From a virus (Duplodnaviria > Caudoviricetes): a stretch of DNA of 40,114 nt. Shown piece by piece: positions 7,092 through 36,357 of the stretch. The position numbers and the translations under genes were made by a program. The notes under the pieces are model-generated. The model had not been told where the DNA came from. It saw only the letters and a program-made list of their open reading frames with translations, and ran no database searches. The first letter of the stretch is position 1; each line of letters opens with the position of its first letter. The stretch spans positions 1 through 40,114 of the IMG/VR virus record IMGVR_UViG_3300042814_000132, one strand, 5' to 3'.

Positions 7092-7253
7092 CTATTGCGT
7101 CAGCAGCAGGCCGAGACTGACGAAGAAGAGCGCAAGCGTCAGGACGCGCGGATGCCACGCCGCGAACGGTTCTCCCGCCCAGCCGAGGAGGAAGGCGAGG
7201 GCGAGGATAATCGCCGCGATGGCGAAGCAAATGCCAGCTTTGGTCGTACTCAC
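7092..7253 (-). CDS. Small two-TM membrane protein
   Basis: GTG overlaps the portal stop; two hydrophobic segments in 53 aa. Confidence 0.6.
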   Translation of the reverse strand: MSTTKAGICFAIAAIILALAFLLGWAGEPFAAWHPRVLTLALFFVSLGLLLTQ

Positions 7254-8746
7254 GGGTTCGTCTCCTTCTGCCCATCGGGTGCCCTCTGGGCGGGTGGCGG
7301 TTGCTGTGGTCCATCCTGCGCGCCGGGCTGCGTCATCACCGACGGTTGCGCCGCACGCTGCTGCAACTGGATCAAATCCCCCTCGGAGCGCGCGCCCATG
7401 CCGAGCATGCGATCCGCTTCGGGCAACTGCGACGGGCTGAGGGTGTAGCCGACGCTCGAGAATGCCTGGATCATCGCGTTGACATCCTGCGCCTCTACCG
7501 CGCCAAGGGAGGCCGTCGGCACCAAATGGTCGGCATTGGCGAAGTTGTAGCGAACCAGGGGGGTGAGGATGTCGCGACGGAGCATCCGGCAGACCCACTC
7601 TTTGTACTCGAGGATGATCTGTCCCAGGATGTCCTGATGCACAGCGGCCTGCGCCCGCGATGCGTGCTTCCCCTCATTGATTGCCAGCGTCTGGACGATG
7701 ACGGCCTTCGCCATCTCGCTGTTGAAGAACTCGAACGCCGCGAGGTAGACATCGCCCCCGGTGCCCGCCTGCGGCTGAATAGCGGTCAGAGTCGCGCCGA
7801 AGGGGAGGACGATGTACGAGCCGTTCTGAAAGCCCGCGACCGCCGTGCCCAGGTATTCCTGCGCCGTCATCATCACCGTGCCCGTGCTCGTCGCCACGGG
7901 GACATCCTGCGCACTCTCTCCCACCGTCGCGACAACGGACGGGGTGGCGAACTGCGCGAGATACCGCTGGTAACTGAGGAGTGCTTGCACTTTGAGATTC
8001 CACGCGCCATAGGCGGGACGCAGGACCGAGCGGCCGCGCGGATCGCCGTCCTGCGGCTCGTGGGTGAGGACGGCGAACTTCTCGCGCGGCAGGATGTTCG
8101 GGATGTCCTTCGGGTCGCTGGAGACCGCCGAGGGGATGATGCCGATCGCCTGTCCGGGTCGCTGGCCGAGGAGGCCGATCACATTGTTGAACGGGTCGAC
8201 GAGGAATGCCGTCGACCGTCGCGGCTTGACCTTCAGGGCGGTGAGGACGAGTTGATTCTCTCGCAACGCATAGATCTGTTCCGCGACCTTGCTGCCCATT
8301 GTCAACGCATCGAGGAGATTGCGCAGCACATCCTCGATCGGCGTCGTCAGGTTCGCCATCACCTCTGTGCAGAAGTCCTTGATCTCCTGGGCCTGTTTGA
8401 AATCCGCCTCCGCTTCGTCCGCGACGGGCGAGGCGAGCGAGACGCCCTCGCTGAGGATGGCGGACTTGAGGAGGCGCATGATCGCGGCAATCTGCCCGTC
8501 GCGCTGCATCCGCTCGTAGATGTCGTCCGAGAGTTCGGACGTGAGATCGTCGATCGCGTGCGGCAGCGTGCGCAGGACGTTGCCCGCGAGATAGCGTGCG
8601 TTGGCAACATACTCATCGGTGGCGACGGCGCGCAACTGGACAACGTTGCCTGCTTTGCCGGGCATCGTCGTGCCGCTACCGGTCTGCGGCGACACGCTCC
8701 CGACGCGCACGGTGGATGTGATGTCCTTCGGCTTCGCTGCGGGCAT
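7250..8746 (-). CDS. Portal protein (Mu gp29/DUF935-like)
   Basis: Follows terL; IYERMQRDGQI, PRGRSVLRPAY, ASRAQAAVH motifs. Confidence 0.85.
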   Translation of the reverse strand: MPAAKPKDITSTVRVGSVSPQTGSGTTMPGKAGNVVQLRAVATDEYVANARYLAGNVLRTLPHAIDDLTSELSDDIYERMQRDGQIAAIMRLLKSAILSEGVSLASPVADEAEADFKQAQEIKDFCTEVMANLTTPIEDVLRNLLDALTMGSKVAEQIYALRENQLVLTALKVKPRRSTAFLVDPFNNVIGLLGQRPGQAIGIIPSAVSSDPKDIPNILPREKFAVLTHEPQDGDPRGRSVLRPAYGAWNLKVQALLSYQRYLAQFATPSVVATVGESAQDVPVATSTGTVMMTAQEYLGTAVAGFQNGSYIVLPFGATLTAIQPQAGTGGDVYLAAFEFFNSEMAKAVIVQTLAINEGKHASRAQAAVHQDILGQIILEYKEWVCRMLRRDILTPLVRYNFANADHLVPTASLGAVEAQDVNAMIQAFSSVGYTLSPSQLPEADRMLGMGARSEGDLIQLQQRAAQPSVMTQPGAQDGPQQPPPAQRAPDGQKETNP

Positions 8747-8761
8747 GGGCGATCATCCTGT

Positions 8762-8926
8762 TTGGAAACCCTTTGCCGATCCTTGACCCGATGCACGAGT
8801 GGAAGACCCTTTGCATGTGACAGTACCGGCTGTACACGGCAAAGGGTCTTCCAACCGTCTCTCAGCGGTACGCGGCATCGGGTCAAGGATGTAGCGTCTC
8901 CACGCTCACATGCAAAGGGTTTCCAA
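8762..8926. mobile_element. Three nested copies of a 53-58 bp hairpin mini-element
   Basis: Perfect IR pairs 8762-8776/8912-8926, 8779-8794/8875-8890 and 8800-8814/8839-8853, each enclosing a TGC-ATGTGA-hairpin-TACACG-GCA-like core. Confidence 0.75.
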
Positions 8927-11608
8927 CTACTGGCGAAAGGCGGCGGTGGGGCGGGCGTTGCCGGAGATAGCGACAGCAGATGGCGGCTGGCGGATCACAA
9001 GGAACGCCTGCACCACCGCATCCCCGGCGTCCGTCGAACGCTCCAACCGCTTCGCGATCTGCTCTTTGGATTCGATCTGTATCTTGCCGTTACTGGCAAC
9101 TTTCCAGTGTGGCGCGGTCAAGTCTCCCGTCAACACATCATCCGGTGGCAGCGCCACCGTTGGGCCATAGGTAGGGTCAAGACGCTCTCGCATCCCCCAC
9201 CAGACTTCGGCGCGCATATTGATGAATCCGAGCTCGCCCGTCCGGTCGGTCGCGTCGGAATGCTCGGAGGCGATGAAGGAATGAATCCGCTCGCGTTTGA
9301 ACATCTCCCGAAGACGACTGACGACGCCCGCACCGATTCCGATGCCATCCACCACCGCGTAGGCTTTCGGGTGACGATTCAGGAGTCCCGCCACTCTCCC
9401 TGCGGTCTCCATCGTCTCCTCTTTGGCCGTGTAGCGCAGGGTGTCGATGGAATCGCCGTAGCGGGGCGCTTGTACGGTCCTATCAGTACCGCTATCTGAG
9501 ACATCTACACCAACACAAGTGAGAACATCGCTACCAGGCTTGCCCGCATCTTCCCACTGACGCCAGCGGTCATTGGCGGCCTCGACCCACGCGAGGGGAA
9601 TGACGCCATCCTCATCGGATGATGCGAACTCGCCTTCGACGCGGTTCTGGTAGACCGCCGAGTCCTCGCCCCATTGCCGCTTGCGCTGCTCGGCCCACTC
9701 CGACGAGATGCGCCCTGCACCTATCGCCTCTTCTTTTGTCACCCGCCGCACATGCCAGTCCTCATAACCGGGCTTGCGCGATTGGATGTCATAGAAGCGA
9801 CCCTGCGGTTCGCCGGGCGTCGAGTTGGCGATCGCGAACGCCTCGCGCGGCGTATCCTCACCCGCGCCGGAGAACGCGCCCTCCGCCGCGTCGAAGGTCT
9901 CGGCGGGAATCGTCTTTGACTCGTCGAAGAGGTAGAGGAGCGCATCGGCGTGCGCCCCCTCGATCGTCGCCACATTGTTCGATGCGACCGCGAACGCCTC
10001 ACCCGTCGCCAGGCGGAGCGAGAGCGTGTGCAACTCGGTGCGTCCGCTATACGGCGACCGACCGATCAGGTCCCACCGGAGCGAGCGCGCCCACTTGTGC
10101 ACCTCCGGCCAGAGGAACTTGGTCAGTTGCCGCCAGGCGGAGGCGGTCGTCGGCAGCTTCCAGTCCTCGCCGTCCCGGGTGAGCGCGAACCAGTGGATCA
10201 CCCACGCGTCGAAGGCGGTGTTGTGCTCGACAAACTCGGTCAGGAATGTCTCGACGCCGGGCACCGTGATCGCCACCGTGGGCTGATTCTCAATGACGCG
10301 AAGCGATGAGACACGCTCCCATGCGAGGTGTGTTGGCAGGTTCGCGCCGCGCCACTTTTGTTGCTCTTTGACTGACCGCGACCGACACTGCGCCGCGAGT
10401 GCGTCAACCTGCGTCTCTTTGCCGAAGATGCCGACATGCTCGGTAAAGCGCAGGATGTTGGGGGCATCGTGGATCGCGACGGTATGTGCCGCCCCGAACC
10501 GTCGCTCCCCGGCGTGCGTCCACGCGGTTTTCTTTGTCCGCGTCTCTGCATGGACACCGAGACGCAAGAGCGCACGCGACGTGTCCCGTGCGAGCATCGC
10601 GCTTGTCGTCGTGAGACCGATCTCATTTCGTGCTTTGCCGCTCGTGCCGACACCGGAATGCGCCCAACCATCGCAGGCGAATAGCCGCGAGATGAACATT
10701 GCCAACTGCCGGTTGTCCAACCGCCACACCCATGCAGGGAAACACTTGTCGTGTGCTCCGACGCCGCGCATCCCCCATGCGCTCACAAGATCGCGAACCG
10801 GATTCTTGTACTTCCCCGAACCACGAATACCCTTGGTGACGATTCGATAGTCGTACCGATCTATGTACCGCAGTTCAGCACCGAGCGCATCGCAACACGC
10901 GCGAATCTCGTCCAGACTTGCGCCTTCGACTTGCGTGATCCGTAAATTGCCGCCTGTCGTGTTGCCGTCACCGATCAGGTATGCCGCGAGTTTGATCGCC
11001 TCATCGCTCATCGCCAGTGGTTCACACGTCTCGGTACCGAGATAGACCGCAACCGCTGAACCGATGGTTAGTTCGCCCGCCGCGATCCATGACCCTTCGG
11101 GCCGCAGTCGCATGCTGTATTCCGGCTTGCTGTAACGCAACGGCGTCGTATCTGCCCAGAGCGGATGATTGAGCGTCCGCGTCAGCACTCGGCCCTTATC
11201 GGTCGTGATCTCCACCACGTCGCGCGCACCGTTATCCCACGCATGAGCGCGGGCGGTGACGACCCGCAAATCCTTGTCCACCGCCAGCACGTCGAACGAC
11301 TTGCCGATCAGTTCATGGGCTTCAACTATGCTCCCGTCCGCGAGTCTCATGCCATCATTATAACATACGCACTTACCGATGCCGTGCGGGCCGCGAAACG
11401 AGATGCGCTGGTAGCGGATCAGATCGTCCAGTAGCTCGAGCTGGTAGTCGGTCGGTCCCTTCCCCTTCGGGAAATGGATGCAGTCGAGGACGAAATCGAC
11501 GGCGCTATCCCGGTACTTCTCCTGGAACTCCCGGTACGGCTCCGTCTTCGCCGTCAGTGCCGCCAGCCGTGCCGCTTCCCGCTGTTCCTCTTCCGTCCGC
11601 CGGCGCAT
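8927..11608 (-). CDS. terL: Terminase large subunit containing an intein (start uncertain)
   Basis: Walker A GPHGIGK/T split by the intein; Walker B YLFDES; nuclease GVDV and STDAGDA motifs. Confidence 0.9.
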   Translation of the reverse strand: MRRRTEEEQREAARLAALTAKTEPYREFQEKYRDSAVDFVLDCIHFPKGKGPTDYQLELLDDLIRYQRISFRGPHGIGKCVCYNDGMRLADGSIVEAHELIGKSFDVLAVDKDLRVVTARAHAWDNGARDVVEITTDKGRVLTRTLNHPLWADTTPLRYSKPEYSMRLRPEGSWIAAGELTIGSAVAVYLGTETCEPLAMSDEAIKLAAYLIGDGNTTGGNLRITQVEGASLDEIRACCDALGAELRYIDRYDYRIVTKGIRGSGKYKNPVRDLVSAWGMRGVGAHDKCFPAWVWRLDNRQLAMFISRLFACDGWAHSGVGTSGKARNEIGLTTTSAMLARDTSRALLRLGVHAETRTKKTAWTHAGERRFGAAHTVAIHDAPNILRFTEHVGIFGKETQVDALAAQCRSRSVKEQQKWRGANLPTHLAWERVSSLRVIENQPTVAITVPGVETFLTEFVEHNTAFDAWVIHWFALTRDGEDWKLPTTASAWRQLTKFLWPEVHKWARSLRWDLIGRSPYSGRTELHTLSLRLATGEAFAVASNNVATIEGAHADALLYLFDESKTIPAETFDAAEGAFSGAGEDTPREAFAIANSTPGEPQGRFYDIQSRKPGYEDWHVRRVTKEEAIGAGRISSEWAEQRKRQWGEDSAVYQNRVEGEFASSDEDGVIPLAWVEAANDRWRQWEDAGKPGSDVLTCVGVDVSDSGTDRTVQAPRYGDSIDTLRYTAKEETMETAGRVAGLLNRHPKAYAVVDGIGIGAGVVSRLREMFKRERIHSFIASEHSDATDRTGELGFINMRAEVWWGMRERLDPTYGPTVALPPDDVLTGDLTAPHWKVASNGKIQIESKEQIAKRLERSTDAGDAVVQAFLVIRQPPSAVAISGNARPTAAFRQ
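10220..11371 (-). mobile_element. Intein (384 aa) with LAGLIDADG endonuclease in the TerL P-loop
   Basis: Starts CVCYND after GK; TLNHP block B; YLIGDG and LFACDG; ends VEHN followed by T. Confidence 0.9.
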
Positions 11609-12011
11609 CCACTCCAGTTGATCCGCCTCTGGCCATAGGTGCCGAAGCCGCAAGGAAGGCGGCAAGGTCGAGCCTGACCCCCTGCGTCTCCGATTGGAGG
11701 TACTTGAGCCAGTCGAGGATGTCTTTGTCGCTCTGGACATCCTCGTCGTCCTTCACCCGCTGGGCAATGATGCGCTTGACGAGGCGGACCCGCGCGGCTC
11801 GACTACCAAGGCCGACCATAAAGGTGAGCTTGTCCACCTCAGCGGAGAAATCCGGGTGCTGCATCCACCGCGAAACGGTCTTCTCGTTAATGTCCAACGC
11901 CTCGGCGACCGCGCGCTGCGTCTGCCCATCCGCGAGGGCAATGGCGGCAAGGGTTCGCGTCTCCGTCCACTTGAACGGTTGGTGCTCCTGCGGTGCCTCA
12001 TTTTCGGACAT
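11505..12011 (-). CDS. terS: Terminase small subunit (HTH)
   Basis: TQRAVAEALDINEKTVSRWMQHPDF helix-turn-helix immediately upstream of terL. Confidence 0.75.
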   Translation of the reverse strand: MSENEAPQEHQPFKWTETRTLAAIALADGQTQRAVAEALDINEKTVSRWMQHPDFSAEVDKLTFMVGLGSRAARVRLVKRIIAQRVKDDEDVQSDKDILDWLKYLQSETQGVRLDLAAFLAASAPMARGGSTGVDAPADGRGTAGSGTAGGTDGEDGAVPGVPGEVPG

Positions 12012-13814: not shown

Positions 13815-13914
13815 CTCAGGCCTCCTCGGAAGGTCTGGGCGCGTCCCGGACGGTTGCAGCCGTGTTACCGGGACATCGCAGCGATTTGACTGTCCCCATT
13901 GTCGCATTTTCCGC
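13803..13914. promoter_or_regulatory. HNH leader (sense -10, two hairpins, antisense -10)
   Basis: GCGGAAAATGCGACAAT on minus; GTCCCGG..CCGGGAC and CTCAGGCCT..AGGTCTGGG hairpins; GACAAT on plus at 13803-08. Confidence 0.65.
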
Positions 13915-13920
13915 TCCGCT

Positions 13921-14556
13921 TTACAAGCAGTTTGGCGCATCGCAATCGCCTAAATCCAACATCGGAGAGTTGATGCGGGCCATCCATCTGCGGATTTCCG
14001 GTACGTAGCGGGACGGCCGATATTTGATCGTCGTGCCGTCCGCGCTCTCGCAGCCGAGGCCGGCGGCATAGGCGAGGCGCTGCCATGAGTTCACCCGGCC
14101 CATGTGCAGCCACTTCCCGTGCGCCAACGCATCCGCTGCCGCCTGCCGGCCCTCGTCGCCCAGCTTGAATGCGTCGTCGCCGCCCATGAGGACCGCATCG
14201 AATGCATCCCACTCGATCGGATCGGGCTGCCAGCCGTTCTGCGCCGCGAGGGCGACCCGATAGCCCAGCGCGCGGATGCGCGGCAGCATCGATTCTGAGC
14301 GCAGCCAGGTGAAGAAGGCGCTCCCGACGACGTCCGGGGCGACGGCGAAGAGGCAGCCCGCCCGGTCGCGCCCATCGAGCCAGGTGAGGAACGCGTCATC
14401 ACCGACGTAGCGGTCACCGAAACAGCCGTTGTCGGCCGCCCACGGCATCCCCGCGGGGACGGCCTTGGATGACGCCGGCGAGAGCATCATGCCGATGCCG
14501 GGCACGTCATGGAGGCGGCGGTGCGCGGTGCCGGTGAGATACAACATCAGCGCCAT
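13921..14556 (-). CDS. DpdA/TGT-like transglycosylase (putative 7-deazaguanine DNA insertion enzyme)
   Basis: TGT-fold motifs in the expected order: ADNGCF, APDVVG, AQNG, LMGG, LHMG, SADGT; QueF-like gene nearby. Confidence 0.65.
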
Positions 14557-15071: not shown

Positions 15072-15165
15072 CTCAGACCTCCCGTGTCTGGGTGCCACGT
15101 CGGGGGGTGCTGGTAACACCGCCCCGGCATTCGTATTTCGCTCAGCCCATTGTAGCATTTTCCGC
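15056..15165. promoter_or_regulatory. HNH leader (sense -10, two hairpins, antisense -10)
   Basis: GCGGAAAATGCTACAAT on minus; GGTG-N7-CACC stem-loop; CTCAGAC..GTCTGGG over the SD; TAGACT on plus at 15056-61. Confidence 0.7.
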
Positions 15166-15235
15166 CCCTTCTCACAAACGATTTAGGCCATTGTGACGCT
15201 CTAAAGTCACACCGTACCCGCGCCCGCCTTGCCCT

Positions 15236-15572: not shown

Positions 15573-15629
15573 TCGGTTAACCCGATGCCGTGTACCGCAC
15601 TCCACGGTCACATGCATCGGGTCAACCGA
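15573..15629 (-). mobile_element. Hairpin mini-element copy (57 bp)
   Basis: TCGGTTGACCCGATGC-ATGTGA-CCGT.GGAGT.GCGG-TACACG-GCATCGGGTTAACCGA. Confidence 0.75.
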
Positions 15630-15630
15630 T

Positions 15631-16104
15631 TCATCGCGGCGGGTAGCCAAATGCTGCCTGCACCGGTTTCGGCTGCTCGCTCGGCGTGCCGCGGACGCGC
15701 AAGGCGCGCTCGACGTAGGTGAGCGCCCGTCCGTCGGCGATCATGTCTGTCGTCACGCGGATGACGAGCCATCCGAGAATGGCCGCCGTTGAGTGCTTTT
15801 CGCAGTCGTTCTCGACGCCCGCCCCGCGCACATGCGCCCCCTGGATCCACGTGCCGCCGTCGATGTCGATCGCGACCTTCACGCTCGGATATGCGAGGTC
15901 GTACCGCCACTGCCGCGCCGGCGCCGCGAACCGGTGTTGCCGCACTGGCTCGGACAGCCCAGCCTGGTGTATCTGGCCGAAGAGTGAGTCTTCGAGACAC
16001 GTGCAGACCCTGTGCCCACATGTCCGGCAGGGTGCCTTCGGATTGCGCGGCAACCGGTCGTGCTGCGGGGCATTCGGGATGTCGGCGAGCGAGATGCTGG
16101 GCAT
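15631..16104 (-). CDS. PD-(D/E)xK endonuclease (Vsr/DUF559-like; possible resolvase)
   Basis: QHRF...WRYDLA...VAIDIDGG...H...DCEK...LGWLVIRVT. Confidence 0.75.
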   Translation of the reverse strand: MPSISLADIPNAPQHDRLPRNPKAPCRTCGHRVCTCLEDSLFGQIHQAGLSEPVRQHRFAAPARQWRYDLAYPSVKVAIDIDGGTWIQGAHVRGAGVENDCEKHSTAAILGWLVIRVTTDMIADGRALTYVERALRVRGTPSEQPKPVQAAFGYPPR

Positions 16105-16589: not shown

Positions 16590-16685
16590 ATCGGACCTCC
16601 TAAACAGGTTCGATGACGCCGGGCGGTGGCTCCAATCACCGTTCCGGCATTCGCTATTTATCTGCATAGATTCTACCATTTTCCG
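16578..16685. promoter_or_regulatory. HNH leader (sense -10, two hairpins, antisense -10)
   Basis: GCGGAAAATGGTAGAAT on minus; CGGTGATTGGAGCCACCG stem-loop shared with the 36.3 kb leader; TACAGT on plus at 16578-83. Confidence 0.7.
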
Positions 16686-16718
16686 CCCCGCTGTCATAGC
16701 GTTTTTCCGCATTGGGAA

Positions 16719-16808
16719 GCCGCACTTCGGGCATGGCGCTTTCGGGAGGCGCGGGCGCTTGTCCTTCGGTATCGCCTTCACGATGTCCTGCAGCGACAGG
16801 CTGACCAC
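16719..16808 (-). pseudogene. Displaced original N-terminus of the 15631-16104 nuclease
   Basis: 17/30 aa identical to that protein's first 30 residues; has its own GAGGAG SD. Confidence 0.7.
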
Positions 16809-17906: not shown

Positions 17907-18762
17907 TGCCTCTTTCCTCCATCGCCGCGTACCGCGCGGCGTCGGCCTCGACCGATCCGAGAATGCGGGCGTTCTTCGCCTCCGCCCGTTCGAGGCTCGT
18001 CGTGGGTGAGCCACGGGCCCCGCGGCCCGTAGCGGGCGCGGGTGCCCTCTGGGCGGCATGGGCAGCATCGCGTTTCAGGTAGTCCCGCGCCCACGCTCGC
18101 AGGTCCGGCAGCCAGTCGGCACGGCTGCGCCCCTCCGCCAGTCGGCGGTCCGCCCACTGCGGGATGATTTCGCTCGCCAGCTGTTCGGGCGTCGTCCCGA
18201 TGGCCGTGGCCTGGGTGGCGAGGTCGGCGTCAGAAAGCTGAGGAAAAGCCGGGGCGAACCGCTCGCTCGCGCGCGGGCGCTCGCGTGTGGGTGCGCCCGC
18301 GGGGGAGTTAATCTCTCTCTCTGGTATTCTTAATGGGTCTTGTTCAGTGGGTCTTGTTAATTGGGTCTTGTTCCGGTCTCGGAGCGGAACTAGTTCCGGT
18401 CTCGGAGCGGAACTAGTTCCGGTCTCGATTTGAGACTGGTTCTGATTCGAGACTAGTTCCGGTTTGGGACTAGTTGAGACCGTGACAATGTGATAACAGT
18501 TGCTCGCCCGCTTGCCTGACGTGATCGTCACGAGGCCCGCGTCAACGATTTTCTTGATCGCGGTCGCCACTTGGCTCCGGCCGCAGCCGAGCTCGCTTTG
18601 CAGCTTGCTGTACGAAGGCCAGGAGTCGCGCTCGCCGTTCGCGTGGCGCACAATGCAGGCATAGACTGAGAAGGCCGTCATGCCGATCTTCGGCAGATAT
18701 TCATCAATGACCTCGTTATCGATGTGAAACCAGCCGCGTTCGCGATCGTCTACGATCCTCAT
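17791..18762 (-). CDS. Replication initiator (N-terminal winged HTH)
   Basis: WFHIDN...VYACI...SWPSYSKL...LV...NCY; internal repeat region. Confidence 0.8.
   Translation of the reverse strand: MRIVDDRERGWFHIDNEVIDEYLPKIGMTAFSVYACIVRHANGERDSWPSYSKLQSELGCGRSQVATAIKKIVDAGLVTITSGKRASNCYHIVTVSTSPKPELVSNQNQSQIETGTSSAPRPELVPLRDRNKTQLTRPTEQDPLRIPEREINSPAGAPTRERPRASERFAPAFPQLSDADLATQATAIGTTPEQLASEIIPQWADRRLAEGRSRADWLPDLRAWARDYLKRDAAHAAQRAPAPATGRGARGSPTTSLERAEAKNARILGSVEADAARYAAMEERGNGTPDVRTGNGAHAGALPAGDRTGDEGPVVDIPERHAR
18310..18480. repeat. Iteron cluster, probable replication origin inside the initiator gene
   Basis: GTTCCGGTCTCGGAGCGGAACTA at 18370 and 18393, partial at 18416; TGGGTCTTGTT three times at 14-bp period; adjacent AT-richer tract. 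Confidence 0.75.
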
Positions 18763-18824: not shown

Positions 18825-21017
18825 CTAGCTCTGTGCTGACTCGCCCTCCGGTCCCGCCTCGCGCACGATGGGCGCGCCGTCGCCCGTGTACGCGACGACG
18901 AGCCTGCCCTCGAAGATGCCGATCAGTTGGTCGTAGTCTGCTTTTGTGAGCACGTAGAGGGAGACCTCGCCGCGGGCCGGGTCGAGCTTGTCCGGATGGA
19001 GGAGGTGCATCGTTTCGCGCTTGGCGTCCTTGGTCCAGCCCTCATCACTGCCGGTCGCCCAGAAGAGGGCGATCTGCTGCGCGTTCGGCTTCCACGGCTC
19101 GATGCGCTCCGCAGGCGGCGCGGGCACGGGCTCCGATTGCGATGGAAGGGGTGCCGATGGGGTGACCACGCCTGTGCTCCTCACCTCCTGGCGTCCGGTG
19201 ATGATGAGCTCTTTCGCCTGCTCCAGCGTCAGGCTCTCGATGTGATCCACGCCCAGGGCGGCGAGTCGGTCTGCCAGCGGATAGCCCTTGTCAGCGAGCG
19301 CGCGCAGCTGGGCGTGCTGGTGGAGATTGGAGCGTGCAGGCGTGGGTGGTGCGGCGATCTTCCCGTCCACGATCTCACCGGCAGCGATCGCCGCGGGGCG
19401 CACGGCCGTCGCACGCCGGGGCCGCTCCTCGTTCTCCGCCTGCCCCATCTCCTCCTCGGTGTAGATGCCCCGCGTCTCGTTCGGGAAGGCGGCCCGGATT
19501 GCCTGACTCTCGGCGCAGTTGCCGCAGAGCATTGAGAAGCCGTGCCGACGTACCACGATCACGCCGGAGGGAACCGTGACGCACCAGACGCGCCCGCCCG
19601 CGTTGGGCTGCAACTCAAGGCCTGGGTGCTTGCGCGTGGTCGTCTGCGGATTCGGGTTGTGATACTCGCGACCCCATCGCACCACGGGAATATCGTCACG
19701 CCCGCTGATGGTGACGTGGTAATTCGGCTGCGCGCTGATGTCTGACCAGCGCGCGGTGCGCTGGCTGACCGCGTACCCCGCGATGACCGCAGCGAGCTCG
19801 AAGGCCTCGATGTGATCGGGCCGTGACGAGTAAAAACGCCGGACGCCCGTTCGCTTGTTCGTGCTGCCGTCGAACGCGACCAGTGTATCGATCAGCAGCC
19901 GCGCCTGGTCACGGTTGAGGGAGAGCACCGCATCCCGACCGATGCGCTTCCCCTCATCGCAGAGGTACGCAACTGCCGCGCGCGGATAAGAGAATCGCAT
20001 CTTGTCCAGCCGCGTTGTGATCGTCCGCGCCGGCGTGACGGCCACCGCACCTGCCGCAGCGCGGCGCGTCTCTGCGATGTAGCTGCCGATCTCGCGGAGT
20101 CGCGCGACCTTTCCGGGACGCGATACCTCCACCGCGATCGTCCTGCCCGGGCGATCAGTGCCGTCCGCGAGGTAGGCGGCACTGATGGCAATCTCCGTAT
20201 CCGTCACCGGTGCGGCGGATTTGAGCGTCGTGACGAGACGCGGGATGCGAAACATGGCGCGGGTGCGCGCCCGCTCGTACATCACGCCCGCCTCGATCTT
20301 CCCTGCCGTTGTCACCATGTCGTGATTCGGCGTGACGCTGAAATTCAGATCGTCACTGTCGAGCGTCACCATGTCGCCGTTGTACGCTTGCACGAAGGGG
20401 CGTGCATTCGTCGGTTCCAACCCCCTAGCCGTCACTTGCAGCACGCGCCCTGTCACCGCGTTGAAGGGTTGGAACCCCTGATCCGTGAGGACTTCCGTGT
20501 CCTCGCTGAAGCACTTGGCGAGCATGTGATCCGGCATCTTCTTCCAGAGCGAGACCGGGTTGCCCTCCCGGTCGGTCTGGACGAAAGCGTCGTAGCGGAC
20601 CGTCGCCCAGAGGGTTTCTGACCAGTCCGTGCGTTTGACGCCGACACGCGCGGCGACGGGCGGATCGCTCTTCAGCCAGACATCGGTCCAGACACCGTCC
20701 GCGCCGCACCAGTACGGCCCGATCCTGCCGGCATATATACCTGTCCGCTCGGCGATCAACCGGTACCCATTGATCGACGTCTGGATCCGCAGAGCTTCCT
20801 CCCAGTTGCCCTGCGCGTTCTTCACCCGTTGCTTGATGGGATAGAACTGCTTGTCGAAGAGCGAGAGGCCGGTGCGTCGCTCCACCGCGGCGACGAAGTC
20901 CAGTTCGACGTCCGTCAATCCCGGTGCGATGCCGTTCCGGATTGCCTGGAGCTCATCGCCGAAGACCTCGGCGGCGAGCGCGCCGGCCTCGCGAGTGACC
21001 AGTGCGTCACTTGCCAT
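18825..21017 (-). CDS. bet: Bet/RecT single-strand annealing protein containing an intein
   Basis: TGLSLFDKQFY, QTSINGYRLIAERTG, WKKMPDHMLAK/CAESQAIRAAFP...GIYTEEEM. Confidence 0.9.
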   Translation of the reverse strand: MASDALVTREAGALAAEVFGDELQAIRNGIAPGLTDVELDFVAAVERRTGLSLFDKQFYPIKQRVKNAQGNWEEALRIQTSINGYRLIAERTGIYAGRIGPYWCGADGVWTDVWLKSDPPVAARVGVKRTDWSETLWATVRYDAFVQTDREGNPVSLWKKMPDHMLAKCFSEDTEVLTDQGFQPFNAVTGRVLQVTARGLEPTNARPFVQAYNGDMVTLDSDDLNFSVTPNHDMVTTAGKIEAGVMYERARTRAMFRIPRLVTTLKSAAPVTDTEIAISAAYLADGTDRPGRTIAVEVSRPGKVARLREIGSYIAETRRAAAGAVAVTPARTITTRLDKMRFSYPRAAVAYLCDEGKRIGRDAVLSLNRDQARLLIDTLVAFDGSTNKRTGVRRFYSSRPDHIEAFELAAVIAGYAVSQRTARWSDISAQPNYHVTISGRDDIPVVRWGREYHNPNPQTTTRKHPGLELQPNAGGRVWCVTVPSGVIVVRRHGFSMLCGNCAESQAIRAAFPNETRGIYTEEEMGQAENEERPRRATAVRPAAIAAGEIVDGKIAAPPTPARSNLHQHAQLRALADKGYPLADRLAALGVDHIESLTLEQAKELIITGRQEVRSTGVVTPSAPLPSQSEPVPAPPAERIEPWKPNAQQIALFWATGSDEGWTKDAKRETMHLLHPDKLDPARGEVSLYVLTKADYDQLIGIFEGRLVVAYTGDGAPIVREAGPEGESAQS
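19518..20513 (-). mobile_element. Intein (332 aa) with LAGLIDADG-like domain in Bet
   Basis: Starts CFSEDTEVLT; VTPNH block B; AYLADG and LVAFDG; VWCVTV block F; ends CGN followed by C. Confidence 0.9.
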
Positions 21018-21970: not shown

Positions 21971-22194
21971 GGCATGCGTCCGGCATGTGCGAGGATGACG
22001 GCGACGACGAGCGTGATGAGGCCGATCATGGCAATGGCTGACAGCCCGAGCACCATCCGGGTCGTGTGCGCTGGCGCGGGTTCGCCGTCGTCGTACCCGG
22101 CGCCGCCCGCATGCGCGATCGCGGCCGGTCGCCAGCCGGTCGCCGCGTCGATGTCGGCCTGGGTGAGGGTGCGCGCCCTATCGTTCATACTCAT
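21961..22194 (-). CDS. Small protein with C-terminal TM helix
   Basis: Coupled ORF with a hydrophobic segment. Confidence 0.5.
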   Translation of the reverse strand: MSMNDRARTLTQADIDAATGWRPAAIAHAGGAGYDDGEPAPAHTTRMVLGLSAIAMIGLITLVVAVILAHAGRMPWA

Positions 22195-22442
22195 CGCTGC
22201 ACCCGCCCACGCGGTCCGGCGAGTGATGAACCGTTTGCATGTGACCGTTCATTGCGGTACACGGCAAACGGTTCATCATGCACTGGCGGCGCGATCGTCC
22301 AGGCGAGGAGACGCGCGGCGTGCGCCGTCACCATCCCCGGTGTCACCTCATTGATCGGCACGTCGTACCACTCCGCGGTCAGCCGAATCAGTTCGGCGTC
22401 CGGCGATTGCTTGTTCGGTTGTTCCTGGTCGTCCCATATCAT
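22191..22442 (-). CDS. Hypothetical protein with a mini-element in its 3' part
   Basis: Coupled ORF (MIWDDQ...). Confidence 0.45.
   Translation of the reverse strand: MIWDDQEQPNKQSPDAELIRLTAEWYDVPINEVTPGMVTAHAARLLAWTIAPPVHDEPFAVYRNERSHANGSSLAGPRGRVQR
22224..22278 (+). mobile_element. Hairpin mini-element copy (55 bp)
   Basis: TGATGAACCGTTTGC-ATGTGA-CCGT.TCATT.GCGG-TACACG-GCAAACGGTTCATCA. Confidence 0.75.
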
Positions 22443-24079: not shown

Positions 24080-24520
24080 ATGGAGATCAGCATCGCCTGC
24101 GCGAAGGCGGTTCGCCGCCTCACCGGTCCCGGTCCACTCGACGCTGAGGCCGTGTGCGCGCTCTATGGCGTCGAGGTTGACACCTGGCACTTTCGCAAAA
24201 ACCTGGAAGCGCTCTACGCGTCCGGCAGCATTGCCGTGAAGCTGGGTCTCGCCCGCCCGGTTCGCGAACATCGCATCCTTCACGAACTCGGCCATCACCT
24301 GATACATGGTGACCACTCCGGCGTCCGTTTCTGGAGCACGCGCGATGCGCAAATGCTCTCGAAGGCCGAGCATCAGGCGGAGATGTTCGCCTATTTCGTC
24401 GCGTTGCCGTCGAATGAGCTGGCGGTGCTCCTGCGCGGGCGTGTCGAGATCGAGGAGATCGCGAGCCGCTATACGCGGACCGAGGAATGGGTCCGCGAAC
24501 GCATCCGCCTCGAGGGCTAA
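24080..24520 (+). CDS. ImmA/IrrE-family metallopeptidase (anti-repressor)
   Basis: HELGH (HExxH) and E.QA..FA motifs; lies between repressor and integrase. Confidence 0.9.
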   Translation: MEISIACAKAVRRLTGPGPLDAEAVCALYGVEVDTWHFRKNLEALYASGSIAVKLGLARPVREHRILHELGHHLIHGDHSGVRFWSTRDAQMLSKAEHQAEMFAYFVALPSNELAVLLRGRVEIEEIASRYTRTEEWVRERIRLEG

Positions 24521-24527
24521 CACTGAG

Positions 24528-26036
24528 ATGGGGATCGCCCGCGGCTATGTGCGCGTTTCGACGCGGAAACAAGAGGCCGGTGTCTCGCTCGACACGCAGC
24601 GCGACGCAATGCGCGAATACGCGGCCGAACACGCCCAGACGCTCACGCTGTACGAGGATGTGGAAAGCGGCCGCAATGTCAACCGGCCGGCCTATCTGCG
24701 GCTGTTGAGCGATCTGCGCCCGGGCGACGTCGTCCTCGTGTGGAAGCTCGACCGCGCCGGCCGCAACGCCGAGGAAGCGTTGCGGTTCCGCCGCCTCATC
24801 CAGGAGCGGGGCGCGCGGCTCATCTCGATCACCGAGCCGGGAATGCAGGAACCGCTCCTCTACGGCGTCAACGCCGTCTTTCACGAGGAGTTCTCGCGCG
24901 CCCTCGCAGCGAAGGTCGTCCCAAATATGGAGCGTGTTGTCACGATCGAGCGGCGCTGGGTCACGAAAGCGCCGCACTGGTATCGACTTGATGTCAAGCC
25001 ACGTGTCGGCAAGCAGCGCCGGGTATTCTCAGAAGGGGAAGGGCGACTCGTCCCGAACGAAGACTATCCCGGACAGGCCCAGGAGTGCTGGGAGATGCTC
25101 CTCGCGACGAATAGCATTTCCGGCACCGCCGCGGCGTTCGATCTCACGTATACGAAGCTCGCGCGCATGATCAATAGTCCGGCGTATGTCGGCGATACCC
25201 TCTGGCGCGGGATCCTCGTGACCGGCACGCATCCGGCGATCGTCCGGCGCGAGACGTGGGAAGCGGTTCGCACGCAGCGACTGGAGAATCCGTTTCCGTC
25301 GCCGCGTCGCACGGAGGGGCCGCGACTCCTCACGGGCTACGTCTTCCGGGCCGATTCCCAGCATCGGATGTATCACCGTGTCCGCAACGAGCACACACCG
25401 TATGCCCGCCCCTACTACAAGACGGCCGATGTCGTCCCTCGCCCTCCACATGCGGCAATCCCTGCGGATGAACTGCATGAGGCAGTGATCACAACACTCA
25501 AGACGCTCGACCTCTCGCCCGCGGAGGTGCGGACGCTCGAGCGCGATGCGCGGCGCGCGGTCCGCACCGACCCACATGCGAAACGGCGCGCGCAGCTGCA
25601 GCGTCAGCTGATCGAACTGGAAGCCGAGCGCGATGCTGCGACACGCGCACTCCTCCGCGGCGCAATCACCGACGCCGAGCGTGCCCGGGCGCGCGAGCGG
25701 CATGACCGCGAGGAGGTCGAGTATCGGGCAGGACTCGCCGCGTTACCGCCGCTGCCGGATGTCGAAGACGTACAGATCCGTTCCCGCGGCCGGATCGGCA
25801 TCGCGCACCTGATTGATGAACTCTGGCGCCAGTTCAACGGTACCGATGCTGAGATTGCGCGTCGCGCCATGTATGACATTCGCGAGCTGCTGCGACTGTA
25901 TGTGCGCCGGATCGAGGTATGGGGCGCAGAAAACGAGGGGCGCTTCGGCGGAGACCAGGCAGTGTGGCGTCGCGATCATCCGCCCCGTATTCATATCGTT
26001 TGGCGCGATTCGCCTAGCAATAACGAGGAATCGTAG
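24528..26036 (+). CDS. Large serine recombinase (integrase)
   Basis: YVRVST catalytic motif, SG..VNRP, WKLDRAGRN, Y.G...GTHPAIV, coiled coil. Confidence 0.9.
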   Translation: MGIARGYVRVSTRKQEAGVSLDTQRDAMREYAAEHAQTLTLYEDVESGRNVNRPAYLRLLSDLRPGDVVLVWKLDRAGRNAEEALRFRRLIQERGARLISITEPGMQEPLLYGVNAVFHEEFSRALAAKVVPNMERVVTIERRWVTKAPHWYRLDVKPRVGKQRRVFSEGEGRLVPNEDYPGQAQECWEMLLATNSISGTAAAFDLTYTKLARMINSPAYVGDTLWRGILVTGTHPAIVRRETWEAVRTQRLENPFPSPRRTEGPRLLTGYVFRADSQHRMYHRVRNEHTPYARPYYKTADVVPRPPHAAIPADELHEAVITTLKTLDLSPAEVRTLERDARRAVRTDPHAKRRAQLQRQLIELEAERDAATRALLRGAITDAERARARERHDREEVEYRAGLAALPPLPDVEDVQIRSRGRIGIAHLIDELWRQFNGTDAEIARRAMYDIRELLRLYVRRIEVWGAENEGRFGGDQAVWRRDHPPRIHIVWRDSPSNNEES

Positions 26037-26110
26037 GCTGAATCAGATCATTCGGCGTACCCACCAATACAAAACAGCCTAAGCGGTCGCGTGGATTGCA
26101 CACGAAAACG

Positions 26111-26247
26111 TTGACAAGTCGCGTACTTTGCTATACAATATGCGTACTGAGATACGTGTTCTATCTCATAGATTGCCCCCGCAATGCATCACCATCGCGA
26201 GGGCGAGCAACCAAAGGAGTTAGCCCTATGGTCGCCAGCGCACAGTA
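26111..26247 (+). promoter_or_regulatory. Early rightward promoter with two operators and a hairpin/antisense leader
   Basis: TTGACA (26111-16)-17 bp-TACAAT (26134-39); operators 26120-37 and 26141-58; hairpin about 26175-26204; TACTGT on minus at 26242-47. Confidence 0.7.
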
Positions 26248-26638
26248 CATCACCCACACCTTCACGGCAACCGTCAGCGTCCAGATTCCGCGCACCATCA
26301 CCGCGGACACTGACCCGCAGACCGTCGAGCACGCGCTCCACGCCTTCTACCGTCGCGCACACGATGAGATGCAGCACAGCGGCGGCCTTTTCCCCTTCGA
26401 TTCGCTGAAGATCGTCGCCGACGCGATGGCCGACAGCGGTGCGGTCACGTGCGAGTACACCAACGATGCGGGCATCACGCGGGCGCGCACCCTCTTCCCC
26501 TACTCCATCCACCTTACCGACGCACGCAAGATCGAAGTCAAGGCGTACGACACGTTCCGGCAGGCGACACGCTCCTTCCGGCTCGATCGCATGCAGGGCG
26601 CGCACCTCGTGACCCTGCCCTGCGATCAGGCGGCGTAA
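26228..26638 (+). CDS. WYL-domain protein
   Basis: EYTNDAG..RARTLFPYSI...AYDTFRQATRSFRLDRM. Confidence 0.8.
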   Translation: MVASAQYITHTFTATVSVQIPRTITADTDPQTVEHALHAFYRRAHDEMQHSGGLFPFDSLKIVADAMADSGAVTCEYTNDAGITRARTLFPYSIHLTDARKIEVKAYDTFRQATRSFRLDRMQGAHLVTLPCDQAA

Positions 26639-30362: not shown

Positions 30363-30776
30363 ATGCTCTTCACGCCCGCACTCGTCGCGAAGATCCTCGC
30401 GGGCGAAAAGACGCAGACGCGCCGTGTCGTAAAGCCAGTCTTTGAGCGGTGGCCGATCGAGCACGTCGGTCTGCGACCGATCTCCTCAGTACGGCGCAAC
30501 GGCCGCTATCTCTGGCGAGTTGGTCGCGTCTATGCGGTCCAGCCGGGCCGGGGCAAGCACGCCGTTGCCCGCATCCGCATCACCGCGATCCGCTACTGCG
30601 CGCGGGCGGGGGACATCTCCGAGGCGGATGCGCGGGCGGAGGGGTTCGAGAGTGTCGCGCAGTTCCGCGAGGTCTATGCGAAAATCAACGGCGCGGCGGC
30701 GCTGGAGCGGCCGTGTTGGGCGCTGACATTCGCGGCGGTGAGGTTAGATGGCCGATCAACCAACTCGAATTCCTGA
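30363..30776 (+). CDS. ASCH-domain protein
   Basis: ILAGEKTQTRR and DISEADARAEGF motifs; AGGAGG SD. Confidence 0.85.
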   Translation: MLFTPALVAKILAGEKTQTRRVVKPVFERWPIEHVGLRPISSVRRNGRYLWRVGRVYAVQPGRGKHAVARIRITAIRYCARAGDISEADARAEGFESVAQFREVYAKINGAAALERPCWALTFAAVRLDGRSTNSNS

Positions 30777-36247: not shown

Positions 36248-36336
36248 GTCGAACCTCCTAGATAGGTCTCGACAACGCCGTTCGGTGGCTCCAATCACCG
36301 GGCGGCATTCGCTATTTGACTGCCTACATTATAGCA
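36233..36336. promoter_or_regulatory. HNH leader (sense -10, two hairpins, antisense -10)
   Basis: TGCTATAAT on minus at 36328-36; TGCTACACT on plus at 36233-41; near-identical to the 16.6 kb leader. Confidence 0.75.
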
Positions 36337-36357
36337 GATTTAGCCCATTGGGATGGG

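Follow-up and report, generated by a model that had tools for sequence, protein, structure and literature searches.

The terL–portal gap

The window, that is, the whole 40,114-nt stretch of DNA that was analysed, belongs to a soil phage in which 165 bp lie between the genes for the large terminase subunit (terL) and the portal protein. The genes and repeat copies relevant here are the following, the concentric copies in the gap being referred to as the nest.

8927–11740, minus strand: terminase large subunit with a LAGLIDADG intein, 937 aa; upstream neighbour of the nest
8762–8926, minus strand: outer copy, with arms 8762–8776 and 8912–8926; the middle copy interrupts its core between A and CGGC
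8779–8890, plus strand: middle copy, made up of a 56-bp unit (8780–8799 and 8854–8889) and one additional junction base pair; carries a variant core, interrupted after the extrahelical G
8800–8853, plus strand: inner copy, 54 bp, intact, precise insertion; the latest layer
7250–8746, minus strand: portal gene (Portal_Mu match), with its ATG at 8746
15574–15628, minus strand: solo copy of 55 bp with a single mismatch in the stem; 2 nt past the stop of ORF 15631–16104 and just ahead of a Shine–Dalgarno sequence (SD)
22224–22278, plus strand: solo copy, 55 bp, within an open 83-aa ORF (22191–22442, minus strand)

The nest begins immediately (0 nt) after the terL stop and ends 2 nt ahead of an SD-like AGGA (8759–8756), which lies outside it and 9 nt ahead of the portal ATG. 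A preliminary description had reported three concentric perfect inverted repeats filling the gap, and the recomputed arms are indeed all perfect, pairing 8762–8776 with 8912–8926 (15 bp), 8779–8794 with 8875–8890 (16 bp) and 8800–8814 with 8839–8853 (15 bp); the solo copies that it had placed at 15.6 and 22.2 kb likewise exist. Inverted repeats of at least 15 bp within 200 nt number five in the window, compared with none in 19 of 20 Markov resamples and one in the remaining resample, and the fold of the nest DNA has a z score of −14.6. The proposed division into inner, middle and outer copies holds as well, except that removal of the middle layer does not restore the outer copy exactly: once the full 112 bp are taken out, the outer core is one base short, the middle copy consisting of 56 bp plus one added junction base. 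With this base allowed for, the outer core and loop are identical to those of a solo copy in another contig (G007:17308–17361), and the same junction recurs in three other nests. The inner copy scores 70.6 bits with the family model, of whose training set it is a member.

Relatives of the terL–portal region in IMG/VR comprise the same phage and sequences of 39–42% identity only, among which no empty junction was found; closer portal homologues, 87% and 77% identical, are known without DNA context. For the solo copy at 22224–22278, no homologue of the host ORF without the insert was found. The terminase intein (residues ~124–507) splits the Walker A motif; intein-free homologues of ~500 aa exist, and one homologue carries Terminase_6N. 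Elsewhere, the window contains at least eight HNH-type ORFs in 40 kb, and several HNH or HNH-AP2 genes resemble one another in the sequence surrounding their start, which in two cases includes a short hairpin (13884–13940, 15124–15191, 16610–16712 and 36269–36346). Three repeats with a 23-bp period and a 14-bp palindrome, located inside an HTH_36 gene (18367–18442), look like a putative iteron origin within a replication initiator. The window also encodes an unusually long RecT/Bet protein (18825–21017, minus strand; 730 aa, two matching stretches) and a large serine integrase (24306–26638, plus strand) followed by a WYL gene.

The same locus in a second strain

A strain ~95–99% identical to the window phage is present in run X2, which comes from a different study. 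Two X2 contigs, with a depth of 4–4.7 and in mutual agreement, enter the nest from opposite sides. One follows the minus strand down to 8875 and, after five unplaced letters, continues with 8854–8877 of the plus strand; the other contains 8854–8874 of the plus strand followed by the minus strand from 8794. The five letters match in length the middle core piece 8795–8799, so that X2, as read from coordinates rather than from the letters themselves, would have the outer and middle layers and no inner copy, the core of the middle copy being uninterrupted and reversed relative to its arms. A library artefact could account for this flip; the loops of some other copies are, however, reverse complements of one another, which points to a real inversion in place. 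The different number of layers and the flipped core argue against the 165 bp being one conserved RNA, the outcome in relatives that the preliminary description had set against its own account. At the 22.2-kb copy, X2 differs by a one-base deletion and a substitution (window positions 22251 and 22271), both in low-depth contigs.

Arm swapping had been suggested to give the mRNA alternative folds beside the portal ribosome-binding site. The cross pairs themselves are present, 8768–8778 with 8837–8847 (11 bp) exactly as described and the other, given as 14 bp (8807–8820 with 8906–8919), actually extending over 15 bp (8806–8820 with 8906–8920). The functional part of the suggestion is not supported: the swapped fold is 26.6 kcal/mol worse (−100.5 versus −127.1 kcal/mol), with a probability of the swapped pairs of ~0, and predicted SD accessibility does not change with the number of layers (one to three) and is close to that of the empty state; the mRNA of the nest is predicted to fold as one rod. 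These calculations also make it very improbable that the 165 bp are a cis-regulatory RNA, a switch or processing site tuning portal translation. Such a role would suit the location between the terL stop and the portal SD and the similarity of the inner and outer arms, which suffices for cross-pairing, but the latter is expected from the common ancestry of the copies, X2 differs in both layer count and orientation, no promoter or terminator pattern was found in the nest, and Rfam yielded no match at E ≤ 1 across the whole window. Most likely, the nest is a tolerated passenger at the terL–portal junction, where it may have led to a loss of translational coupling between the two genes.

Long hairpins are prone to chimeras, and the turned X2 core could be one, yet an assembly or library artefact of fold-back sequence is scarcely credible as the source of the nest. 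Its three layers differ in sequence from one another, a single 14.9-kb contig of run X1 (possibly the source) spans it with 0 differences, similar nests occur in unrelated contigs, and both X2 contigs agree. Contigs L193 and G006 are also identical across the nest and possibly represent the same material. The nest is real and mobile, and each of its layers is one copy of a family of hairpins of 53–58 bp.

A hairpin family with a conserved core and free stems

The units of this family are gene-less and consist, in order, of a 13-bp stem, GC, the core half ATGTGAC, a loop of 9–14 nt, the core half GTACACG, GC and the stem partner. We collected 67 distinct unit sequences by peeling the nests in 16 contigs and adding further loci; two of these sequences carry a junction change that stems from the peeling. 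The stem varies in sequence at 12 of its 13 positions, only the innermost T being fixed, and is closed by an invariant T-GC, whereas the core, which contains a 1 × 2 internal loop and one extrahelical G, is conserved and asymmetric. Among 42 aligned copies, the stems contain one G-U pair and one open cell in 546, and in the 67-sequence set, 13 of 871 stem pairs are mismatched (six of them G-T on the listed strand and three on the other strand). Stem pairing served as a selection filter for the collected copies, and these numbers are to be read accordingly. Covariation within the core is not a product of the filter, because the search pattern allowed both halves to vary independently. It fits one register only, with T20–A42, G21–C41, T22–A40, A24–T39 and C25–G38 paired and G23 extrahelical: pairs 20–42 and 22–40 are changed on both sides in nine and five of the 42 sequences, respectively, and broken in none, whereas the alternative register is broken in five of the 42. 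In three variants, each 84 bp long, the loop is enlarged by a further 30-nt hairpin that might itself be another tiny element (L239:13719–13802, L241:7399–7482 and L244:19319–19402).

In IMG/VR, the core pattern occurs at 43 loci and a degenerate version of it at 72, of which 62 have at least 10 of 13 flanking pairs; the other ten, with at most 5 of 13, are chance matches. A metagenome scan with the degenerate pattern, covering 15 of 64 parts, returned mostly chance matches, with five of 119 loci having at least 12 of 13 stem pairs, one of them being the window's own nest. Among 185,579 GTDB genomes, the strict core pattern matched once, at a stemless site attributable to chance, and no true match was obtained; the INPHARED phages and PLSDB plasmids contained no family match either. 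Thus, in the databases searched, the family is found only in phage or phage-like contigs. In the openly accessible literature searched, we found no description of it.

Evidence of mobility

Empty orthologous sites were identified for six of the 56 outermost loci. The best case is the copy G007:17308–17361, which, compared with contigs G009 and G012 at 96.5–98% flank identity, represents a precise 54-bp insertion with no duplication; other insertions added 2–3 bases, and most of the empty sites are only 75–90% identical. Overall, junctions vary among exact joining (0), +1, +2, +3, replacement of one base and −1. Identical copies reside at unrelated sites, namely, at 49853 and 53325 in G001, at 16622 and 16799 in G002, and at 30364 in G005 and in L074. 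Moreover, compared with homologues, a RecT-family gene contains 19 aa of additional in-frame sequence and a small gene of G002 contains 18 aa; copies also leave the reading frame open in genes for a C5 cytosine methyltransferase, a portal-like protein and a head protein. The methyltransferase copy (L241:13325–13378, equivalent to G001 53325–53378) lies in frame about ten codons ahead of the conserved PC motif. The insertion at 16799 of G002 appears to shift a reading frame. Taken together, the empty sites, the identical copies at unrelated sites and the in-frame insertions of 18–19 aa show that the family moves, and there is little doubt that it is a tiny mobile element.

Direct target duplications of 1–8 nt do not exceed chance among 66 copies, a palindromic AT duplication would fit two sites, and no flank consensus was found over ten positions on each side. 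Beyond the 13-bp stem, complementarity extends to the first base pair in 40 of 66 copies, compared with 18.3 after shuffling; the second is complementary in 12 of 66, compared with 16.5. With respect to neighbouring genes, 21 copies are in sense and 18 in antisense orientation, and 11 are ambiguous. Seven of the 56 outermost copies directly follow a stop triplet, compared with 2.4 expected, an excess that selection in packed operons would also produce. Ten element loci are concentrated within ~3 kb of an early/recombination region in G002 (L242:16400–19600); two of them are identical and separated by 177 bp, and one RecT-family gene holds two.

Nesting and probable self-targeting

The 12 nested insertions are distributed over the window (two), G002 (two), G003 (five), G008, L022 and L111 (one each). 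Together with the empty sites and the two-layer state of X2, they support the view, put forward in the preliminary description, of successive insertions of a tiny non-autonomous element. Host copies were entered at the extrahelical G in three cases, at the internal loop between A and CGGC in four, opposite the bulge in two, and at a neighbouring core step, in the loop and in the stem in one case each. Insertion into the conserved core in ten of the 12 cases is significant if the events are independent (P = 2e-4) and not significant if they are collapsed to six site classes (P = 0.07), and stem insertions, being harder to detect, are under-counted. As for the ends of the incoming copies, those ending in TGG sit at the bulged G (3 of 3 nests), those in TCC or TCT at the internal loop (4 of 5) and those in GGA opposite the bulge (2 of 2).

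Self-targeting was part of the preliminary description and is likely, but its strength depends on how much of a phage genome tolerates insertion. The 13 non-redundant contigs examined contain 66 copies, of which 10 are nested; uniform insertion would give 0.6. If all non-coding DNA (19%) were the tolerant space, 3.1 nested copies would be expected (P = 0.001), whereas tolerance confined to 10% of the genome raises the expectation to 5.8, leaving only marginal enrichment (P = 0.06). The same mobile element could, then, insert nearly at random, with nests surviving because they are neutral and two-layer composites moving or converting as units. This alternative, which we consider unlikely, has in its favour the figure for 10% tolerance and the common junction of the four internal-loop nests; further, the outer and middle copies of the window are 79% alike to G002:17752–17863 at a non-homologous site, which together with the shared junction suggests that composites may move or convert as units. 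However, many copies lie in genes, which widens the tolerant space, the four nests have different host stems, loops and inserts, and three site classes recur, each adjoining an unpaired base of the host. Self-targeting of resident copies thus remains our preferred reading, and neutral survival and composite movement may account for part of the nesting.

A proposed mechanism of transposition and the search for a mobiliser

We interpret the 165 bp as three stacked, gene-less mobile hairpins of 53–58 bp from temperate phages, which a trans-acting enzyme probably mobilizes in the form of folded single-stranded DNA, a reading to which we assign a probability of roughly 0.6. Watson–Crick covariation, conserved unpaired bases, unbiased orientation and the lack of duplication favour a single-stranded DNA hairpin as the substrate, and such an intermediate appears probable in its own right. 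Under this model, the enzyme would, while the phage replicates, bind the bulged core in its single-stranded form and cut at a fixed distance from it, the ends being set by the length of the stem and not by its sequence; the constant length and free sequence of the stems suggest cutting at such a measured distance. One end would then be joined to a nicked target, and the 3′ end filled in by folding back on the new flank, which would leave an extra complementary base at the junction. This fill-in step is more tentative than the intermediate itself. Fold-back or template switching could also keep drifting stems perfect and flip cores and loops. Nests would form because the unpaired bases of a resident copy hold the enzyme, or have a nick made next to them, and because an insertion at these positions does no harm.

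For the short dispersed repeats of cyanobacteria, a route through RNA has been proposed, in which the hairpin is transcribed, cut out by an RNase III-like enzyme, copied into DNA by reverse transcription and then inserted. The RNA hairpins of the present family would be very stable (−33 to −40 kcal/mol), their fixed stem length would suit a ruler nuclease, and seven of the outermost copies lie right after stop triplets. This route is nevertheless improbable: orientation is not biased relative to transcription, G-U pairs are almost absent, the scanned ORFs include no reverse transcriptase, and the bias towards stop triplets is equally expected from selection in packed operons.

A Pfam search of the 74 window ORFs and of 254 of 316 candidate ORFs on 15 other contigs (the rest being judged structural) revealed no Y1/HUH transposase, reverse transcriptase, Cas1 or DDE-family protein, and the carriers share no gene besides structural ones. 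A gene-bearing, autonomous version of the element was not found among 100 right-half and 14 left-half loci, nor were long versions with CCC/GGG stems; 73 chance half-site loci gave 0 model matches. As for individual candidates, ORF 15631–16104 (minus strand, 157 aa), which to us looks like a Vsr/DUF559-type nuclease, has no Pfam or NCBIfam match, its only match being PHROG 503 (function unknown), and no homologue in other carriers. HNH genes are not consistently adjacent to copies, and the one GIY-YIG gene seen, in G010 (200 aa), is located more than 2 kb from the nearest copy. The mobiliser is possibly a host enzyme or a rare helper.

A bolder generalization would be a class of ~55-bp phage transposons in which stem length alone defines the ends. 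A single-stranded DNA enzyme measuring from the bulged core would move them and direct them to resident cores, at positions set by the terminal bases of the element. We regard this as speculative and doubtful at present; if true, such elements would form a minimal hairpin insertion system programmable by sequence and would continually supply phage proteins with peptide inserts of 18–19 aa.

Comparison with known elements

Among the closest analogues are the small dispersed repeats (SDR) of the Nostocaceae, reportedly described by Elhai and colleagues in 2008. SDRs are 21–27 nt long and nest in their own copies. The similarity lies in the tiny gene-less hairpin, the compensatory stems and the precise insertion, and the window family, like SDRs, combines a conserved fold maintained by compensatory changes with self-nesting. 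Its members are about twice the size of SDRs, were found in phage contigs and not, with the strict core pattern, in GTDB chromosomes, and lie in frame in phage genes. SDR5 inserts into HIP1 (PMC4390886). By contrast, the window family lacks a fixed target such as HIP1, as judged from the absence of a flank consensus over ten positions on each side. The resemblance to SDRs noted in the preliminary description stands as an analogy only.

Integron attC sites are characterized by RYYYAAC...GTTRRRY boxes, and IS200-IS605 elements by a tetranucleotide target and two different ends. Neither feature is apparent in the stem columns or flanks of the window family, and the extrahelical G is a structural likeness only. 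Miniature inverted-repeat elements (MITE; PMC10969869) resemble it in having terminal inverted repeats, a length below 500 bp and no transposase, but here the terminal repeats are not conserved between copies whereas the core is, and neither a parent IS nor a direct target duplication above chance level was found.

REP and REPIN elements, which are associated with RAYT (TnpA-REP) enzymes of the Y1 HUH type, are likewise non-autonomous long DNA hairpins with bulged stems and a proposed single-stranded DNA intermediate, and they form clusters by insertion into or beside existing copies (PMC3116915 and PMC6006769). For REPINs, an asymmetric intermediate has been proposed to regain symmetry on insertion (PMC3116915), and Y1 HUH enzymes are established to act on folded single-stranded DNA (PMC6006769). 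Nevertheless, GTAG or GTGG occurs 0–2 nt 5′ of the stem in only three of 56 loci, compared with 2.2 expected (the outer copy of the window is among the three), no RAYT gene was detected in the window or in the 254 of 316 ORFs of other carriers, and the conserved centre with freely variable arms is the reverse of the REPIN arrangement; copies are also often intragenic, unlike REPINs. The NTS/SRM hairpins of Ssn (GIY-YIG) nucleases, enzymes that bind folded single-stranded DNA and cut at a distance, are likewise oriented DNA hairpins with a conserved asymmetric part (PMC11893778), but the phage contigs examined contain neither the SRM consensus nor a hairpin-flanked, small single-domain GIY-YIG gene. 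Finally, the Rickettsia palindromic elements (RPE) form in-frame fusions in unrelated genes (PMC10969869), as the window family does; the latter is one third of their size and lacks flanking direct repeats.

Thus, the family works like SDRs, REPINs and, in its in-frame habit, RPEs, yet falls outside the definitions of MITE, REP/REPIN and SRM. It adds short peptides to phage proteins and, without its enzyme, is a well-described element rather than a new system. The usual rule of small transposons is inverted in it, the ends being free and the middle conserved. For the question of how gene-less hairpin repeats shorter than 100 bp spread, the family provides material of unusual clarity: highly similar alleles with and without a copy are available, one locus exists in two- and three-layer states, junction types recur, and the fold deduced from covariation indicates which bases an enzyme should need.
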